From: a virus
Lineage: Duplodnaviria; Caudoviricetes
Direction: 5' to 3' (one strand)
IMG/VR virus record: IMGVR_UViG_3300014204_000130
Span: 32,001-96,000 of that record
Length of the DNA: 64,000 nt
The stretch's first letter is position 1. Every line of letters begins with the position of its first letter. A program made the translations under genes and the position numbers. Below are positions 3,524 through 48,773 of the stretch, piece by piece. The notes under the pieces are model-generated. The model worked only from the letters and a program-made list of their open reading frames with translations. It did no database searches and was not told the origin of the DNA.

Positions 3524-5698
3524 ATGAAATTTTATCGAAATGAAATTAAACTCGGGAAAGAAAAGAAAGTTCTCATCACTTGCAATCACCATGAAAACAA
3601 TGAAGCAAAGATTGTAAAAGAAATTGGGAATTTCCATCACATCCATGTCATCGACCGTTCCGGCAGTATGCAAGGTTCTATTGCCGAACTCATTGAAGAT
3701 GTAATTGCAACATTTTCATTGATGGGACCAAATGATATTGTATCTGTCCTTTGGTTTTCATCCGAAAATCAACAGGGTGTTATTTTGAAAGGTGCGAAGA
3801 ATGATCCATCCTTGAAAGAAGTTCTTCGCAAATATAAATCCACCGTTGGAATGACCTGCTTTTCACAACCGATGGAAATGGTGAAATCCATCATTGATGA
3901 ACTCTCTCCAATGTGTTCGAATATCGTGGTAAATTTCTTCACGGATGGTATGCCTGTAGTTTCTTGGGGATCAACCGAAGAATTCAAACGGACACACGCT
4001 ATTGTCGAATCGTTTTCCCACAAGATCATATCCATGAATACCATCGGATATGGCCAATACTATTCTCAGCAATTCTTACGGGATCTGGCCGGATTGACGC
4101 AGTATGGACAATTTGTACATGCTTCGAATATCCGGGATTATCAGAAAATTTTCGATACGAACTACCAGATTGTCAAAGAAAACATTCTGGACAAAGTTGA
4201 AATTGAAGCACCAGGAATTATAATTTATCTTAATCGGAAAACAACCAAATGTTCTGGAGCTACTGCCAAACTTGAATTGACTTCATTGGATAACAACAAG
4301 AATCAATTCTTCATCCTAATGAATATGGATACAACGTGTCTTATCAACGGTGAAAAGATCGAATCCAGTTCCATTTTAAACAAAGCTTCAGATGCAACCA
4401 TCCAGAACTTCTATTATGCCCTTGCTTATAATATGTATTATGATGGTACTCGTTCTGAAGCTCTGGAAGTTATTGTGAAAAATATCGGAAATGGATATCT
4501 TGCAGATCGACAACTTTCTGCCTGGACATTCGATGAAGTTTCCGATTATGAATCGATCTTGTTCCAAAGAACAATCAATCCAGAATCTCGGAAGAATGAC
4601 ACTCCATGCAAATCAAATTATCTTCCGAAAGACAATGCCTTTTGTTTCATGGATATGATGCTCTTACTTTCCAGAGATGGAGCATTATATCTTCCATATC
4701 ATTCAGAATCGGAAGATTACGAACGAATCGGAAAGAAAGCAGAATATGTTGAATTTGGATTCCATCGGGACAATTCCAAAATTCCAAGTGCCTCTTTCTC
4801 CAATGTTGTATTCACCAAAGATCGTTGCAATATCGGATTGAAATTTCAGATCGCTGGATATGTTGATATCAAACCCGAACATTCCAAAAACATTTCCAAA
4901 ATTGATTGCTCTATCTTCCGAACACATAATCTGATTCTCGACGGATATCCAAATTTGAAATCCATTGTTGTTTGTATGTCTTCCAAACTTTACAACAAAC
5001 TTCTCACCAAGAAAGTCGATGTTGTATATCTGGAAGATGGAGACGGTGAAGATACTTCGGTGATTTGCAAAATCAATCTTTGTTCTATTCCGGTTATCAA
5101 CAAGAAAATGTCCGAAGGAAATACCGGAAGTTCGATTTTACATCTAATCGAAGAACAAATTGAACATGAAACAAATATCAAAGTTATCGGTTCTCTGATT
5201 GAACAACTTGGAAAATCAAAAGCCAAGAAGTTTTCGGAATATACGACCGAGGAAAGTCTTTTGTTGGACAGATATGGAATCGACAAGTCGGGCGTATATC
5301 GTGGTATCGGATTGAGTCAAAAGAAAAATGATGCATGTGACTACTACATCTCAAAGAACGTGGAATTCTCCTTACAGGGATTCAAAAAGATTCCGTCTGT
5401 CAATGAATATCTCAAACGAGTCGCGGCCAAGAAAGATATGAAAGGATGTATCACACTCATTCATGAGGCGTATGAAAAATTCATCAAACTTCCTTTGGCA
5501 CAACTTGAAACTCAATTGATCAATGAGCAAGATCTTCTCCGGGATGTAAAGTATGAATTGTCGATCATCAAAATGTCATTGATTCTTACTGGATCTTGGA
5601 TTCCAGATTTCAAGAAGAATGACAATGGTGAATTCATTTATACCGATTCATTACACACCGCTGAAATGTGTATCTCGGAAGAAAAACAATACTTCTAA
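3524..5698 (+). CDS. Large vWA-domain protein
   Basis: MIDAS motif VIDRSGSM, conserved Thr, FFTDG; 724 aa. Confidence 0.8.
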   Translation: MKFYRNEIKLGKEKKVLITCNHHENNEAKIVKEIGNFHHIHVIDRSGSMQGSIAELIEDVIATFSLMGPNDIVSVLWFSSENQQGVILKGAKNDPSLKEVLRKYKSTVGMTCFSQPMEMVKSIIDELSPMCSNIVVNFFTDGMPVVSWGSTEEFKRTHAIVESFSHKIISMNTIGYGQYYSQQFLRDLAGLTQYGQFVHASNIRDYQKIFDTNYQIVKENILDKVEIEAPGIIIYLNRKTTKCSGATAKLELTSLDNNKNQFFILMNMDTTCLINGEKIESSSILNKASDATIQNFYYALAYNMYYDGTRSEALEVIVKNIGNGYLADRQLSAWTFDEVSDYESILFQRTINPESRKNDTPCKSNYLPKDNAFCFMDMMLLLSRDGALYLPYHSESEDYERIGKKAEYVEFGFHRDNSKIPSASFSNVVFTKDRCNIGLKFQIAGYVDIKPEHSKNISKIDCSIFRTHNLILDGYPNLKSIVVCMSSKLYNKLLTKKVDVVYLEDGDGEDTSVICKINLCSIPVINKKMSEGNTGSSILHLIEEQIEHETNIKVIGSLIEQLGKSKAKKFSEYTTEESLLLDRYGIDKSGVYRGIGLSQKKNDACDYYISKNVEFSLQGFKKIPSVNEYLKRVAAKKDMKGCITLIHEAYEKFIKLPLAQLETQLINEQDLLRDVKYELSIIKMSLILTGSWIPDFKKNDNGEFIYTDSLHTAEMCISEEKQYF

Positions 5699-14803: not shown

Positions 14804-15546
14804 TAATATTTTTTGACAGTCTTTTAAAAGACGGAATTTCCCAGTAGGACCGTAAACTGTGAATTTGGAATTCCGTCTTTTGTTGGACAGAATTTTGAAA
14901 GTTGAGAATTTAACATGTCACTTTGTCCAAGATGTAAAGTAAATGAGAAACAAATATTTAAGACAGGTAAAGTCGGTGCATATTGTAGAGAATGCCAGAA
15001 ACATTACCATGATAGGTATTATTATGGTGAAGGTGGTAAACCTGTGAAGATTCCGAAACCCCCGAAACTTCCAAGAATCCCGAAAACAATTTGTCCAAGA
15101 TGTAAAGTAAATGAGAAACATAAATTTCCAAATTGCATGGCTGCTTATTGTTTGGTATGCGTCCGAGAAGTGGATAAGGAAACACATAAACGAAGAATGT
15201 TGGAAGATCCCGTCGAGATAAAACGAAAACATCACTTGGCCGTTCAAAGATATCAGAGGAAGACAGATCCTGAAAGATTTCGTCGATATAGAAAGATGGG
15301 TATGAAGGAAATAGACACTTCATTGACATTGGCATTCGTAATGGATTGGTTTAATGGTGAATGTCAGGAATGCTTTAATATCTGTGAATTCGGAGGAGAG
15401 TATAAACCAACAATTGATTATATAGTTCCGTTGAAGTCTGGAGGACAACATGTGAAGGAAAACGTAAGGCTGTTGTGTAGAAGTTGTATGCAAATAAAAT
15501 GGAGAAATTCTATTTCATAATATTTTTGGACAGTCTTTTAAAAGAC
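14804..15546 (+). mobile_element. HNH gene cassette bounded by 29-nt direct repeats
   Basis: TAATATTTTT(T/G)GACAGTCTTTTAAAAGAC at 14804-14832 and 15518-15546. Confidence 0.6.
14915..15520 (+). CDS. HNH endonuclease-like protein, probably catalytically degenerate
   Basis: Duplicated CPRCKVNEK fingers; TIDYIVPLKSGGQH...NVRLLCRSCM (His->Tyr and Asn->Met relative to DHIIP..GG.H...N...C..CN). Confidence 0.75.
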   Translation: MSLCPRCKVNEKQIFKTGKVGAYCRECQKHYHDRYYYGEGGKPVKIPKPPKLPRIPKTICPRCKVNEKHKFPNCMAAYCLVCVREVDKETHKRRMLEDPVEIKRKHHLAVQRYQRKTDPERFRRYRKMGMKEIDTSLTLAFVMDWFNGECQECFNICEFGGEYKPTIDYIVPLKSGGQHVKENVRLLCRSCMQIKWRNSIS

Positions 15547-15587: not shown

Positions 15588-16301
15588 GTCCAACGTTGGA
15601 ATTTGAGAGCCGAAGGCTTCCTGTTGAGATGGGGTTGTCTAAGATTGGACAGTTATAAATTCGTTGCTTGTCTAAGATTGGACTCCTGTTGAGATGGGTA
15701 GAGAATTGGGAGGAAAAAGAATGGGTTACGGATGATATGGAAAAGTTGGTTATGCATCCATATACCACATGAAGTACTGCCGTACCCTCCGCATTTTCCG
15801 GAAATGCTCGCATTATTTTATTCCACCGTACAACCCGCATCAACACACGTTCTCCACAGTCGTACATATAGCACCGTACTAGCTGTACCGTACTCTCATA
15901 CCTTGCAAACGCTGATCAATACTCATTTTCCACGAATCAATGATATGCACGCCGAAAGTACAAGTCGATATGGTTGGTGCATTATGCACGGCAATGAAAA
16001 GTGGAAAACTCGTAGGAATGGCTTAAAATGGAAAAAGGTAGAATTGCCTGGGAATGGTCGGAAAAAACTTGTCCAGCAAAAGACTGGGAAAAACTGATAC
16101 TCCTGAGTATCAAAATTTTAAAATGCGGTTTTGTAACCAGTCCGTGAAATATTGCAGTCTTTTAAAAGATTTTTCGGAATGGCCATTCCTATTGTATTGG
16201 CGATTCAAAAATTCTCTCCTCTTCTCCATGGGGAAGTATAGAGTAGGGGGAAGGGTAAGATTCTATATTGAAAAAATAGTTATCGAGAATGAAGAAAACA
16301 T

Positions 16302-16330
16302 TTGACAAGTGCTAGCACTCGGAGTAACGT
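16302..16330 (+). promoter_or_regulatory. sigma70-type promoter heading the ncRNA/early transcript; palindrome AGTGCTAGCACT in the spacer
   Basis: TTGACA-N17-TAACGT. Confidence 0.6.
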
Positions 16331-16396
16331 ATTTCTTGTAAGTGCATTTTAAAACTTACTCCCTTCTTGGAAGGGGATTGCCCAAAAATTTGAAAA

Positions 16397-16848
16397 GTGA
16401 ATCGGCAAGAGTAGACGAAAGGCCAAAAATCTCTCCCCCGCCGGAAACGGCGAAAAACCTAGCTTCAGGGGAGGTAAAGTTTATCAGGATACAACGCCTT
16501 AGCATCCGTCTACTATCCAAAACGTGATTAAAGTGTCACGTGTCGGAACGGCGCAAGGATACGGCGATATCTCGAAAGTCTCCCGAAGTAGAAAATCAGA
16601 GATGAGTAGAATACCGTAAGCGTATTAAATGGCAAGAGGTAAGATACCCGGCCACCCGCAAGGGTAAAAGTGAACCGATATACAAGTGATATCACGGGCA
16701 ATGGTATAACCTACCCTCTCCCCCTACTCTCTCGTGAGAATGTCGGAAGGACGAAAGTATACCAAAGTGAATGCGGATAGCTAGAAAAATGCGTGTTGTA
16801 GTAAGCTTGGTAACTGTTTTTCGTCATGCGATACCCTTACCGATTCAC
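16397..16848 (+). ncRNA. Large ornate structured RNA, ROOL-like (~450 nt)
   Basis: Closing stem GTGAATCGGCAAGAGTA/TACCCTTACCGATTCAC (15/17); AGTAGACG/CGTCTACT stem; GNRA-capped hairpins (CGCCG-GAAA-CGGCG, ACCC-GCAA-GGGT); long-range CTAGCT/AGCTAG and TACAAC/GTTGTA; no credible ORF. GUGAAU..AGAGUAGACGA and CAUCCGUCUAC match recalled ROOL segments. Confidence 0.7.
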
Positions 16849-16857
16849 AACGTTCTT

Positions 16858-17224
16858 TGAAAAGTGCATCGGGAAAACCCCTTTCTACTCAGTAGTAAAA
16901 ATCATTCCCGTTTCAGGGAATGATAAATTAATTTAAAAGGAGTCAATATGAAAAACAATATCATTCTCCCTGAAATTTTCGGCAAGCTTACTTCCGACAA
17001 CGCCGTGGTTCAGAATACCAATGAGGCATACAAGCGCGGTATTGCCATGCAAAAAGCAGTAAAGGAAGCTGAAAAAACGGTAAAGTTGGCTAGCGATTCC
17101 TTTCAAGCCGAACTCATTGCGCGTGCTTCTGACTTACACGTGGTCATTCTGACCATGAAAGCATCTACCATTACCAAGTAAGCACTTGTGACCTGACTTC
17201 CGGTTTTTCCCGATGCACTTTTCA
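16858..17224 (+). repeat. Perfect 20-bp long-range inverted repeat with boxA-like 5' arm, enclosing a 77-aa ORF
   Basis: TGAAAAGTGCATCGGGAAAA (16858-16877) / TTTTCCCGATGCACTTTTCA (17205-17224); GTTCTTTGAAAA at 16852-16863. Confidence 0.9.
16948..17181 (+). CDS. 77-aa hypothetical helical protein
   Basis: AAAGGAG RBS preceded by a hairpin and AAATTAA. Confidence 0.7.
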   Translation: MKNNIILPEIFGKLTSDNAVVQNTNEAYKRGIAMQKAVKEAEKTVKLASDSFQAELIARASDLHVVILTMKASTITK

Positions 17225-17375
17225 TCCCGGCTCATGTTGCTTGTATGCGTTCGGCTTACTGGTTCTTCAGTTTGCGCGTGCTGCATGTTTTCATGAGCCG
17301 GTTGTCCTGTTCTCTTCTGTTTCTCGTATCGGATTTTTTTCCGGACAACATTTTTTCCGAAAGGAGATTGCCAAA

Positions 17376-17774
17376 ATGAATACACTTGTAGAATTGAAAA
17401 AATCAATTCAGGCTTGCAAGGAAGTTATCTCACTTTGCAAGTCGAGTAATGGGGAATATTGTCTCTTGGCAATCTCTCCGAGAAAAACGGGATTTGCCCG
17501 GAGTATGTTTTTCCGGGCGATTCAAAACAATGTCCGTTCCATTCTACCCAAAGGGGTATATGGAACATTCATGGAAGATGGGGAACATGTTACGGTGGAA
17601 GTATCGCCGGAACATGTTCCTTGTCTGGTAGAAAGAATGGAAAAGAAATACATTGTTTCCATTCTGTCTGATTCAAGGATTGACGAGAGACAATCCTTAT
17701 CACCACGTGAAACACAGTGCAAGAAAACAAGACGAGTTACCGCTTGCACTTCCTCTACTCGGACAAATAAGTAG
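17376..17774 (+). CDS. Hypothetical protein
   Basis: AAGGAG RBS before ATG 17376 (MNTLVELKK...). Confidence 0.55.
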   Translation: MNTLVELKKSIQACKEVISLCKSSNGEYCLLAISPRKTGFARSMFFRAIQNNVRSILPKGVYGTFMEDGEHVTVEVSPEHVPCLVERMEKKYIVSILSDSRIDERQSLSPRETQCKKTRRVTACTSSTRTNK

Positions 17775-17831
17775 GGAGAAATTCCCTACCATGTTTTCCC
17801 GGTTTAAAAATTCATTCTCAAAATAGGTTTT

Positions 17832-17927
17832 TGTATCTTTTCCAGATCTTTGGAGGGATACAAAAACCTTGTTGTCGTTCCCGGAATAATCTGTATCTTT
17901 TCCAGATCTTTGGAGGGATACAAAAAC
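17832..17927. repeat. Two identical 36-nt hairpin repeats with a 24-nt spacer (mini-array-like)
   Basis: TGTATCTTTTCCAGATCTTTGGAGGGATACAAAAAC at 17832-17867 and 17892-17927. Confidence 0.9.
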
Positions 17928-18126
17928 ATTGCATTTTGCAATGTCCACCAAAAGATGCACAACGGTTTATCATTTCCGTTGTCATCTTGCATCTTTCTTC
18001 AGTTAAAAATGATAAAGATCATTTGCAGGCCGTTTCAACGACGGTGACTGCAACGGCTTCAATGCCGTGAAATGATATGTATCCGGTTCGTTTCAGAACT
18101 GGAAAATTCGTAAAGGAGGTGTCATC

Positions 18127-19530
18127 ATGACATCTCAAAACAACGTCGCCAACTTAATCGGAAGTCTTCCGGCTTCCGTAAAAAATATTGCGACCGCCGT
18201 TTCGAAAGTCGGCGGTCGATCGTTTCTGATCGGGGGAGCCGTTCGCGACTTCTTCCGGAACGGCTCCGACCCTAAAGATTTCGACCTTGAAATCCATGGG
18301 TTGCAACTGGAAACCCTGAAAGGGGTTCTCGACGGTCTTGGAATGGAAACCAAGACCGTCGGAGAATCCTTCGGGGTTCTCAAGGTTCGCGACGAGGAAG
18401 GGAACGACCTTGACATCTCCCTTCCTCGTCGAGACAACAAATGTGGCGTCGGCCACAAGGGGTTCACCGTCGAAGTGGACCCCAACATGACTATTCGGGA
18501 AGCTTGTTCCCGTAGGGATTTCACCATCAACACAATGATGGTGGATATCCTCACAGGGTCTATCGAAGACCCATTCGGAGGATTGGAAGACCTCCAAAAG
18601 GGAATCCTTCACCATACCTCGGAGCAATTCTCCGAAGACCCATTACGGGTTCTCCGGGGAATGCAATTCCTTTCCCGGATGGGATTCCGGGCTTCCCAGG
18701 AATTGGAGGAAACCTGTTCAAAATTGGTTTCCTCCTTCTCCGAACTTCCCAAGGAAAGAGTTTGGGAAGAGTGGAAGAAGTGGGCTGCAAAAGCCCAATC
18801 TCCTTCGAAGGGATTGGAATTTCTCCGGAATTCCGGATGGGTTTCCAACTTTCCGGAGTTGGAGGCACTCATCGATCTCAAACAAGAACCCTCCCATCAT
18901 CCCGAAGGGGATGTGTGGGAACACACGCTGCATACGGTCGATGCAGCGTGTAAGATTGCCGGGAGGGAAAATCTCCCGAGTGACCGGAAAGTTGCCCTTA
19001 TGTTAGGGGCACTTTGCCACGATTTCGGTAAGGTAACAACCACCGAAGTTATCGATGGGGTTATCACATCCAGGAAACACAACGTAGCCGGGGAAGAACC
19101 AACCCGGTCATTCATGGCGCGGATAGGTGCGCCAAAAGACCTCACCGAAGAGGTCGTCCATCTGGTCCGTGAACATATGATTCACGTCTTCGGTGAACTG
19201 ACGGACAGCGTTGTTAAAAAGCTGTCCTCCCGGATCAACGGGAAAACCACCGTAATAATGGTTTCACATGTGATCGAGGCTGATCACGGTGGCCGACCTC
19301 CATTCGCCGCCGTTCATCCTTGTCCCCAAATCCTGGAAATGGCAGCGAGATTGAATGTTCTCGCCGCACAACCGAAACCTTTCCTGACCGGACGACATCT
19401 CATCTCGCTCGGGTTCAAACCCGGTCAGGAAATGGGAAAGGTTCTCAAGGAGCTTTTCGACCTTCAACTGGAGGGAAAGATTGCCTCGGAGGAGGAGGCA
19501 ATCACATTCGCGAAAACAACTCGGGATTAA
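18127..19530 (+). CDS. cca: Class II tRNA nucleotidyltransferase (CCA-adding enzyme) with HD domain
   Basis: GGAVRD, DFD, RRDFTIN, EDPLRVLR, ERVWEE, HHPEGDVWEHT and CHDFGK motifs. Confidence 0.93.
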   Translation: MTSQNNVANLIGSLPASVKNIATAVSKVGGRSFLIGGAVRDFFRNGSDPKDFDLEIHGLQLETLKGVLDGLGMETKTVGESFGVLKVRDEEGNDLDISLPRRDNKCGVGHKGFTVEVDPNMTIREACSRRDFTINTMMVDILTGSIEDPFGGLEDLQKGILHHTSEQFSEDPLRVLRGMQFLSRMGFRASQELEETCSKLVSSFSELPKERVWEEWKKWAAKAQSPSKGLEFLRNSGWVSNFPELEALIDLKQEPSHHPEGDVWEHTLHTVDAACKIAGRENLPSDRKVALMLGALCHDFGKVTTTEVIDGVITSRKHNVAGEEPTRSFMARIGAPKDLTEEVVHLVREHMIHVFGELTDSVVKKLSSRINGKTTVIMVSHVIEADHGGRPPFAAVHPCPQILEMAARLNVLAAQPKPFLTGRHLISLGFKPGQEMGKVLKELFDLQLEGKIASEEEAITFAKTTRD

Positions 19531-22899: not shown

Positions 22900-24039
22900 A
22901 TGAGCATTCAACAAAAGTTTTCTGACAATGTGAAACAACATCGCGGTATTCTCAAACATCTTCTCATCGAACGGGAAGAGATCATAGACGCATTACATAT
23001 CGCACTTCTTTCCCGAAAGAACGTATATCTCATCGGTCCCGGTGGTGAAGGCAAAACAAAAATTGCAAAAGACTTTTCCAAGTTGTGTTCCATGAAATTC
23101 TTTGATCAGCAATTCCATTCATTCACGAAGGTGGACGATTGGGAAGGAATCGTTGATCTTAATGAATTCAAACAAGGAAGACTCATTCGTAAAGTTGCCA
23201 ATTTCGCTCCCGGTGCGGATATCCTTCTTGCCGATGAAATTGGACGTGGTGGAGCTGTCCTATCTTGCATGTATCGATTGCTTAATGAAGGCACTTACAT
23301 GGAAGATGGAGTAATGAAACAAGCTCCAGTTGAATTGGTATTCGCCGGTTCCAATTCCATGTTACCGACTGAGCATGATGCACTGTTCGATAGGTTTCCA
23401 TTCTTCTTCGAATGCAAAAAGGTTTCCAATGAAAACTTATTGGAAATCTTGATGGATGATGATAAAGAAGTCATCCTTCCAGAGAATGAAAAGATTACAA
23501 AGGTAATGGTGCATGAAGCACGATTGGAAATGTTGAAGGTAAAACTTTCAAAAGACATTGCAATGATGATTGTGGATATCAATGCAAAATTGGAAGAAGA
23601 AGGTATCCACATCTCCACTCGACTCAATCGTTGGAGTCGAACCATCCTCCAGTCTTCTGCATATTGCGAAGGAAGACAAGAAGTAATCGATGAAGATGTA
23701 TGGGTTCTTCGCAACGTATACGCCAGAACACTCAAACAGAAACCCATTGTCGCAAAGATATTGAGATCGATATGCAATCAGGAACTCGACTTGATGTTGC
23801 TCACCTTCGACCAGTTGGATGCGTATTTCAACAAATGGGAACAGAATGCATGTCCTAGAATGTTGGATGGTGGTGATTGCGCAGAGAGCGCGAAGGAATT
23901 GCTGAAGGCGATTGAATCGGTAAAGCCGAAGGATATCAACAAGGCAGAACATTCAAGGCTTGTCCTGCAAGGGAAGGCCAAGGTTGCCGCGATCTCCGCA
24001 TCGGCATTGGCGAAACGTCGGCAGGGCGTGAAGGAATAG
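22900..24039 (+). CDS. MoxR/RavA-family AAA+ ATPase
   Basis: GPGGEGKT Walker A, LLADEIGR Walker B, AGSN sensor, ALFDRF. Confidence 0.88.
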   Translation: MSIQQKFSDNVKQHRGILKHLLIEREEIIDALHIALLSRKNVYLIGPGGEGKTKIAKDFSKLCSMKFFDQQFHSFTKVDDWEGIVDLNEFKQGRLIRKVANFAPGADILLADEIGRGGAVLSCMYRLLNEGTYMEDGVMKQAPVELVFAGSNSMLPTEHDALFDRFPFFFECKKVSNENLLEILMDDDKEVILPENEKITKVMVHEARLEMLKVKLSKDIAMMIVDINAKLEEEGIHISTRLNRWSRTILQSSAYCEGRQEVIDEDVWVLRNVYARTLKQKPIVAKILRSICNQELDLMLLTFDQLDAYFNKWEQNACPRMLDGGDCAESAKELLKAIESVKPKDINKAEHSRLVLQGKAKVAAISASALAKRRQGVKE

Positions 24040-48161: not shown

Positions 48162-48538
48162 CGTTATTTCCTCGTAGAATTTCTTGATTCGAATCTGAGC
48201 CTTATTGCTTCAAACAAATCACTATCAATGGTTTCATCAAGTAAAATAATCCCATTGATATTTAATCCAAGCATATCTTGTACTTTTGATACTTCACAAT
48301 ATGTGAAGTATGATGAATCAAGCGATTTCAAAAATTCCAAATATTTCACATGATCTTTGGTTACTACACAGATACTTTTGGTATTCATTGTTAGACTCCT
48401 AATTGATTGTTTGAAGTAAGAAGATATGAACTGTTTCTTGATTACGAAAGTTTGACTTCCAACCACCAATTGAACATTAAGTTAGTGAAGCAAAAAGCCC
48501 TCGTGGTGGGATAGACATCCATTCATATCTTCCAACAT

Positions 48539-48632
48539 TGGGAAGAGTGGGATTAGAACCCACGGGAATCCTTCTTTAAGGACTCTACGACACGTTACAA
48601 CGTCGTGCAATAAACCACTCTGCCATCTTCCC
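48539..48632 (-). tRNA. Class II tRNA-like element (GTA/Tyr-like, distorted anticodon arm, no CCA)
   Basis: GGGAAGA/TCTTCCC, GCA-GAGTGGTTTAT-TGC, long variable arm, GTGGG-TTCTAAT-CCCAC; promoter TTGACA-N18-TAACAT at 48771-48742. Confidence 0.65.
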
Positions 48633-48773
48633 ATGAGAGGTGTTGGTGTCCGATAAACAAACTCCACCGTTTATAAGACACCAACACCATAGACGTATAT
48701 CCGGCCTAGATTTTCCAATCAGATATACGCCCGCGAACTCTATGTTAAAACATCAACAATGAAAATGTCAATG

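Follow-up and report, generated by a model that had tools for sequence, protein, structure and literature searches.

A candidate large structured RNA, outside the ROOL and GOLLD families, in a hairpin-rich region of an orphan phage

Among the large structured RNAs carried by phages or prophages are ROOL and GOLLD, both of unknown function (PMC5737381; PMC12286853). ROOL RNAs average 581 nucleotides (nt) and, in phages and prophages, typically have transfer RNA (tRNA) genes close by (PMC5737381; PMC12286853), and GOLLD members, which are likewise often found near tRNA genes, often exceed 800 nt (PMC12286853). Here we examine a 452-nt stretch at positions 16397-16848 of a 64,000-nt window of phage DNA (bases 32001-96000 of the IMG/VR virus record IMGVR_UViG_3300014204_000130, which is 108,145 base pairs (bp) long and 88% complete). 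An initial annotation, which set these limits, had described the stretch as a compact ROOL-like large noncoding RNA. We find that the stretch is noncoding, folds beyond its shuffled counterparts, has + strand loops that are A-rich and of the GNRA type, as in real structured RNAs, and is closed by a long basal helix, and we conclude that it belongs to neither the ROOL nor the GOLLD family. The best explanation, to which we assign slightly less than even odds (roughly 45%), is a structured RNA module of the + strand that is co-transcribed with the downstream genes ORF77, ORF132 and cca and whose basal helix of ~25 bp would act as an RNase III-type processing or end-protecting element.

The absence of a credible open reading frame (ORF), on which the initial annotation had based part of its case, held up: with genetic code table 11, the longest ORFs within the stretch encode 61 amino acids (aa) on the + strand and 57 aa on the − strand, and the stretch is one of nine ORF-free gaps of at least 300 nt in the whole genome. 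When the + strand was folded as RNA, its minimum free energy (MFE) was −139.1 kcal/mol compared with −113.4 ± 6.4 kcal/mol for dinucleotide shuffles (z-score of −4.03), with 0 of 100 shuffles folding as well. Other ORF-free gaps of the phage gave + strand z-scores of −1.0, +0.2 and −2.8; because these gaps fold unremarkably on the + strand, the strong fold of the stretch is not generic to the spacers of this phage. Translation with table 4 opens two frames across the RNA, one on the + strand at 16342-16926 (194 aa, 7 TGA stops) and one on the − strand at 16356-17225 (289 aa, 8 TGA stops). An alternative genetic code was rejected because the table-4 translations look random and have no Pfam match, and because the long genes of the phage need no recoding; an intron was rejected because no exons were found on either flank.

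The composition of the unpaired regions distinguishes the two strands. In the + strand MFE structure, A makes up 51% of the unpaired bases and GNRA tetraloops, which the initial annotation had correctly reported, cap three of the nine hairpins (GAAA, GUAA and GCAA), with 9 G-U pairs in the whole structure. The − strand fold has 22 G-U pairs, 44% U among its unpaired bases and zero GNRA loops. The neighbouring genes share one orientation: the stretch sits inside a block of + strand genes, and every ORF of at least 200 aa between 796 and 33965 is on the + strand. From this orientation together with the loop make-up, the + strand is likely the sense strand. A comparison of G-U pairs with A-C mismatches, made for the strand and for the RNA or DNA level, contained too few events to be informative. 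The hexamer AAAGTG occurs 5 times in 16394-16861 and 33 times in the entire 108,145-nt + strand, an enrichment of ~35-fold. Another ORF-free gap, located outside the window at 97342-97982 of the genome (641 nt), folds on the + strand with −180.4 kcal/mol (z-score of −8.3) and 2 GNRA loops; it gave no Rfam match at E≤1 and has no sequence similarity to 16397-16848.

To place the stretch among catalogued RNAs, we ran cmscan against all 4,227 Rfam 15 families, including group I and II introns, RNase P, tmRNA, 6S, OLE, raiA, HEARO and T-box. There were zero matches at the gathering score in the window or the remaining genome and zero at E≤10 over the region, and a search with the group II intron model RF01998 was also negative. 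The check that the initial annotation had proposed for its own claim, a covariance search with the Rfam ROOL and GOLLD models, went against it. The ROOL model (RF03087; gathering threshold of 99.1 bits) found nothing at E≤10 in 16380-16865 (486 nt), in 15900-17300 (1.4 kb) or in the whole genome, and had no match in 50 phage records that carry a CCA-adding enzyme; as a positive control, the same model scored 130.4 bits (E of 1e-29) on the ROOL already known from Ligilactobacillus salivarius pMP118. The GOLLD model (RF02032; threshold of 150 bits) had no match at E≤10 in the genome.

Comparison of short conserved segments gave a similar result. The conserved blocks of the ROOL consensus include ACAAUAGACG, GCCAAUAA, CGUAUAAC, AAGUAGCC, GGGUGAAA and cAGUGAAGA. 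None of the 8-10-nt conserved blocks occurs exactly in 16100-16950, and the three matches with one mismatch, at 16422, 16703 and 16662, follow an order unlike that of ROOL. Over its first ~400,000 characters, the published ROOL alignment contains none of the segments that the initial annotation had given as ROOL sequence (GAGUAGACG, CCGUCUAC and GUGAAUCG), and a ROOL fragment from this alignment had no match in IMG/VR or INPHARED. Nor is there a tRNA island, since the one atypical tRNA-like call made by ARAGORN in the genome lies 32 kb from the RNA. The idea that the stretch is itself a tRNA mimic was rejected, as ARAGORN finds nothing in it and no T-arm is seen ahead of the 3′ strand.

The stretch does share general features with ROOL, in that both are large, protein-free and phage-borne, with GNRA loops, A-rich unpaired regions and no known function, and AAAGUGAA in its 5′ part loosely resembles aGUGAAGA of the ROOL consensus. 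With GOLLD it shares phage association, large size, predicted structure and the lack of a known function. Such features would be expected of a highly diverged compact ROOL (or GOLLD) that assembles into an RNA-only cage, given that ROOL and GOLLD are phage or prophage RNAs (PMC5737381; PMC12286853). However, the candidate differs from ROOL in its length (452 nt, or 617 nt in an extended form, versus an average of 581 nt), in not lying beside tRNA genes, in lacking a covariance-model match despite a control that scored 130.4 bits, and in having conserved blocks that are missing or out of order; the multistem junctions and pseudoknots of ROOL cannot be inferred from one sequence. It differs from GOLLD in having no match to RF02032 at E≤10, and GOLLD RNAs are often >800 nt and near tRNA genes (PMC12286853). 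The compact ROOL proposed initially was thus rejected, and even a highly diverged form, largely refuted at the level of sequence and covariance model, is very improbable. What stands of the initial annotation is a structured noncoding candidate, supported by its fold statistics, its loop composition and the absence of a coding signal. Literature searches for new large phage RNAs returned nothing useful.

The predicted architecture begins with the closing stem. Segments 16397-16413 and 16832-16848 are 88% complementary over 17 nt, and in the partition function the longer arms 16397-16423 (P1, 16397-16405; then 16407-16409 and 16411-16413; P2, 16414-16423) and 16816-16848 form a basal helix of ~25 bp with two single mismatches and pair probabilities of 0.89-0.99. 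For the 452-nt form, the partition function predicts a long irregular basal rod with a branched core at 16519-16774, in which most helices have a probability (P) of at least 0.9. Hairpin H1 (16432-16474) consists of UCUCCCC/GGGGAGG followed by CGCCG-GAAA-CGGCG, with the GAAA tetraloop at 16444-16447 (P of 0.90-0.99), and is retained in both of the rival architectures described below. The 5′ strands of the rod helices (16481-16488, 16490-16497, 16502-16505 and 16509-16518) pair with 16775-16813 (P of 0.73-0.96). Hairpin H2 (16522-16541; ACGUGAU/GUCACGU) has P of 0.94-0.99 in both models, and a branched core domain (16596-16737), closed in the 452-nt fold by 16596-16609/16724-16737, carries hairpins with GUAA (16610-16626) and GCAA (16654-16665) loops.

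The helix strings quoted in the initial annotation were all located in the sequence, namely AGTAGACG at 16410 with CGTCTACT at 16507, CTCCCC at 16433 with GGGGAG at 16468, ACGTGA at 16522 with TCACGT at 16536, and TGGTATA at 16702 with TATACCA at 16758. The strings of its two candidate pseudoknots are equally real (CTAGCT at 16459 with AGCTAG at 16779, and TACAAC at 16490 with GTTGTA at 16795), but their status as pseudoknots depends on the model. In the 452-nt ensemble, TACAAC/GTTGTA is nested (P of 0.95) and excludes the 16410/16507 helix, although forcing that helix costs just 4.4 kcal/mol. The rival model instead has a local helix between 16410-16417 and 16507-16514, with P of 0.96 when upstream sequence is included.

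This dependence on upstream sequence bears on the size of the RNA. When 16113-16900 was folded, the upstream noncoding segment at 16232-16396 formed + strand helices with P of 0.98-0.99: AGAGUAGGGGGAAGGGUA (16240-16257) paired with 16712-16730 over 18 bp, a pairing that also appears in the inverted-repeat listing as a 12-bp perfect complement, and AUUGCCC (16377-16383) paired with 16696-16702 over 7 bp. Inclusion of the upstream 280 nt switched the preferred fold to the local 16410/16507 helix. The extended form (16232-16848; 617 nt) has a z-score of −4.2, and its architecture is separated from that of the rod by 4 kcal/mol. Thus, the closing stem at the limits set by the initial annotation is real, but the limits themselves are not fixed, with the 617-nt form folding about equally well, and segment 16232-16396 may, on these models, be part of the RNA. 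The module would be ~450 nt long, or ~610 nt if transcription begins upstream of 16240.

RNase III is known to cut the long stems of ribosomal RNA (rRNA) precursors and of the T7 early polycistronic messenger RNA (mRNA). The arrangement here is similar in that helices of ~25 bp and 23 bp, each formed from sequences hundreds of nt apart, bracket an RNA or a small cistron. The second of these helices closes a unit at 16858-17224 (unit 2, + strand), in which a 23-nt stem (16858-16880/17202-17224; 96% complementary) encloses ORF77 (16948-17181, + strand) together with the AAGGAG ribosome-binding site ahead of it; ORF77 has no family match and offers no functional lead. Both helices have the dimensions of an RNase III-type unit, being at least 20 bp long (about two turns) and formed by the flanks of what they enclose. 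The two candidate units also stand in tandem, each behind the same short leader. The first copy of the leader motif, TTTGAAAAGTGAATCGGCAA (16389-16408, + strand), continues into the closing stem as part of its 5′ arm, and a 90% identical direct repeat of these 20 nt at 16856-16875 begins the 5′ arm of unit 2, where it overlaps GTTCTTTGAAAA; a 17-nt core of the motif occurs exactly twice in the window. On the + strand at 16852-16880, GTTCTTTGAAAAGTG runs into this second leader copy and contributes to the 5′ arm of the second long stem. GTTCTTTGAAAAGTG may be boxA-like; a literature search for the string returned nothing useful. The locus departs from the RNase III systems in that the helices would bracket an uncharacterized RNA instead of rRNA.

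By analogy with rRNA precursors and T7 early mRNAs, the two long stems would be RNase III-type processing or end-protecting helices. The RNA module would head a co-oriented run consisting of the RNA, ORF77, ORF132, a pair of hairpin repeats and cca, and processing would free a stable RNA of ~450 nt from the polycistronic transcript. In the weakest step of this proposal, the freed RNA would have a function in trans, that of a decoy or scaffold connected with the RNA repair and counter-defence role of the CCA/HD enzyme encoded by cca.

One alternative explanation for the same features is that the stretch acts in cis, as a structured leader within a long 5′ untranslated region of an ORF77-ORF132-cca operon, where competing pairings set the stability, processing or translation of the downstream messages and no stand-alone RNA is produced. 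Consistent with this idea, there is no terminator between the stretch and ORF77, a related contig from wastewater (see below) extends past the 3′ end of the stem, and the two folds are nearly isoenergetic, with three GAGUAG strands facing two CUACU(C) strands and two GACGAAAG strands facing one UUUUCGUC. In addition, the 5′ arm of the first unit (16391-16408) and the 3′ arm of unit 2 (17207-17224) show 89% complementarity. However, such a leader would, at 450-600 nt, be very long by bacterial or phage standards, the basal helix seals the module from the ribosome-binding site of ORF77, which itself lies in a separate stem-closed unit, and no riboswitch, T-box or leader family was matched. We regard a purely cis-acting leader as unlikely, though the likeliest of the alternatives to the processed module.

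The only natural variation seen came from environmental sequencing runs. Phage DNA was present in runs from landfill, probably the source sample, and from groundwater, with an identical copy of the stretch in the groundwater run, and a close relative was found in a wastewater run from a third study. In the relative, 16651-16884 is 98-99% identical (3 of 224 aligned bases differ, and the two contigs that cover it leave a gap of 10 bases), and past 16884 the contig, which continues beyond the 3′ end of the stem, no longer fits at 80% likeness. Such a sharp boundary suggests that a module ends here or that the RNA, together with the leader after it, is strongly constrained. The sole change listed in the relative, A16843G (seen in one low-depth contig), leaves the closing stem of the + strand with U-G in place of U-A, whereas the pair is not kept on the − strand, and weakly supports a + strand helix.

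Several observations weigh against a processed RNA module of the + strand. In its fold, the − strand equals or betters the + strand (−150.3 kcal/mol; z-score of −5.5), and although the stretch has 4 GNRA hairpins with stems of at least 3 bp, compared with 0.8 in shuffles, several coding windows of the phage equal or exceed this count. Only ~4 kcal/mol separates two global folds, and several 5′ strands are duplicated (GAGUAG three times and GACGAAAG twice), competing for single 3′ partners; as a result, size and architecture are not fixed by one sequence, and a single-sequence structure is unreliable. A scan upstream on the + strand gave no promoter-like site, and a candidate sigma-70 promoter with TTGACA at 16302 was rejected because it is not in the scan list and its −10 hexamer has 3 of 6 matches. 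The corresponding scan found no intrinsic terminator after the RNA stretch. No RNA run was listed as holding the sequence; one wastewater run labelled 'RNA-Seq cDNA' was judged to be probably DNA and yielded two 151-nt contigs. RNase III processing and any function in trans are purely inferred.

A further point against the module is the lack of relatives. No homologue of the stretch was found in IMG/VR, metagenome contigs, GTDB genomes, INPHARED or the 50 CCA-bearing phage records, and covariation, the decisive test, is consequently unavailable. The individual searches comprised blastn against INPHARED; nhmmer --max and blastn against 100 loci around homologues of the CCA enzyme in IMG/VR; and single-protein locus searches in IMG/VR with the 177-aa ORF described below (ORF177) and with the DNA polymerase, which recovered no homologue of the RNA region. 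DNA patterns searched in IMG/VR (GTCGGAANNNCGNAAGNATAC, three spaced copies of AAAGTGAA and the doubled leader motif) retrieved only coding or AT-rich chance matches, a 21-mer pattern gave one chance match in metagenome contigs, inside a permease gene, and two DNA patterns gave nothing in GTDB genomes. A covariance model (R1) built from the single sequence of the core domain at 16596-16737 (142 positions, 43 bp) found only itself in the window (182 bits), and its best score in the 50 whole phage records was 11.6 bits (E of 0.85).

These results raise the question of whether the stretch has any selected RNA function at all, or is instead a spacer of local duplications and inverted repeats, left by recombination or by decayed genes, that folds well by accident. 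Its internal direct repeats (D5, D6 and D11) fit such an origin, as do the good folds of both strands, the lack of relatives and a GNRA count that is not unique in the genome. On the other hand, a fortuitous fold would not be expected to reach a z-score of −4 against dinucleotide shuffles or to show a strand-specific loop composition; the stretch is also 98-99% conserved beside a diverged flank in a second phage, and other spacers of this phage fold unlike it. We consider an accidental spacer quite unlikely.

A processed RNA module would be followed by genes whose own sequences are unusually rich in structure. As + strand RNA, 150-nt windows across ~17325-19500 have z-scores of −4 to −10, reaching −8.1 in ORF132, and 600 nt within cca fold with −283.7 kcal/mol (z-score of −11.05). 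Among 300-nt windows scanned across the genome, the top seven for excess folding all fell at 17201-19000. When synonymous codons were permuted such that protein and codon usage were kept, native cca folded with −543.7 kcal/mol compared with −399.0 ± 12.8 kcal/mol (z-score of −11.3) and ORF132 had a z-score of −6.5, compared with −4.2 to +0.5 for four control genes. Six CCA-enzyme homologues from other phages (43-50% identity) had mean z-scores of −0.7 to +0.3, versus −4.1 here. The hairpins are local and mostly perfect, and GC content is 0.52 in 17325-19530 versus ~0.38 nearby. Selection for mRNA (or single-stranded DNA) structure at synonymous sites in ORF132 and cca is the obvious candidate explanation. 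Because the stems are nearly all Watson-Crick and strand asymmetry in energy is no greater than in control genes, these data do not decide between the mRNA and single-stranded DNA levels of selection.

The same properties leave room for a DNA-level element, in which single-stranded DNA hairpins in the stretch would serve a replication or priming origin, or a packaging or recombination site, within a hairpin-rich island of 3 kb. Stems both here and downstream are almost all Watson-Crick (G-U makes up 7.5-9% of pairs on either strand), the energy difference between strands does not exceed that of control genes, with the − strand folding as well as the + strand, and perfect palindromes are 8-fold enriched at 18-19 kb. 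Against such an element, the stretch bears hallmarks of RNA in its closure over a long range and in its GNRA and A-rich loops, no iterons or AT-rich unwinding element are evident and GC content is raised, and hairpins built from synonymous codons in two translated genes fit a role at the mRNA level more easily. We thus judge a DNA element improbable.

The remaining features of the locus are genes and repeats on either side of the stretch. Upstream lie an HNH endonuclease gene (14915-15520) and a 121-aa ORFan (15732-16097). Downstream of ORF77, a 177-aa ORF with a TTG start (17241-17774) corresponds to a database gene call of 132 aa, and the gene is probably this 132-aa ORF132, starting from ATG at 17376 behind GAAAGGAG (17376-17774, + strand). 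ORF132, an ORFan with a hairpin-rich coding sequence, matched only its own 132-aa call among 5.8 billion proteins and has no family or functional lead. Two near-identical 40-nt hairpin repeats follow, 60 nt apart (17825-17931, + strand), and were identified in the direct- and inverted-repeat listings. They are 98% identical, and the first lies within a 13-bp perfect hairpin (17825-17837/17857-17869) just upstream of cca; possible roles of the pair include those of a protein-binding site, an attenuator and a mimic of repeat RNA. The cca gene (18127-19530, + strand) encodes a CCA-adding enzyme with nucleotidyltransferase and HD domains (Pfam PF01743 and PF01966; phrog_2244) whose best non-self homologue is 53% identical. 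The lone tRNA-like call of the 108-kb genome, at 48538-48633 on the − strand, spans 96 nt and has an 'anticodon' of four bases (gtaa); as this is not a normal tRNA, the phage has a CCA-adding enzyme without an ordinary tRNA set. In other phages, a tRNA gene was present at 22 of 80 CCA loci (flanks of up to 8 kb on each side).

At the level of the genome, phage proteins include a family B DNA polymerase, a DnaB-like helicase, a UvsX-like recombinase and an ATP-dependent ligase. The polymerase is merely ~25% identical to the closest sequenced phages, which are T4-like cyanophages, and we therefore assign the phage to an orphan lineage. MoxR-VWA systems are a known pairing of genes, and the same arm of this phage encodes a VWA-domain protein (724 aa; 3524-5698) and a MoxR-type AAA+ ATPase (379 aa; 22900-24039).

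A broader possibility, which we consider doubtful, is that the whole region of ~3.3 kb (16.3-19.5 kb) is an 'RNA-structure island' of a kind not described before, comprising a processed large noncoding RNA and mRNAs whose synonymous codons are selected for dense hairpins, such that the transcripts survive destruction of single-stranded RNA and the large RNA is a nuclease-resistant decoy or scaffold in the same counter-defence. The agents of this destruction would be host RNases of abortive-infection or CRISPR systems, or else the shut-off imposed by the phage itself, and the surviving transcripts would include that of the tRNA-end repair enzyme.

Taken together, the features of the locus are more unusual than the compact ROOL originally claimed for it. 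The stretch is an orphan and an unproven candidate for a new large phage RNA that no catalogued family covers, and a processed RNA module of the + strand, if confirmed, would add another large phage-borne structured RNA to those outside the catalogued families, in a lineage without cultured relatives. The locus joins three things that are rarely combined, a candidate large noncoding RNA, stem-bracketed units in the style of rRNA and a hairpin-armoured tRNA-repair gene, and this combination would offer a concrete way to test how RNA might be protected or processed by phages in the course of infection.

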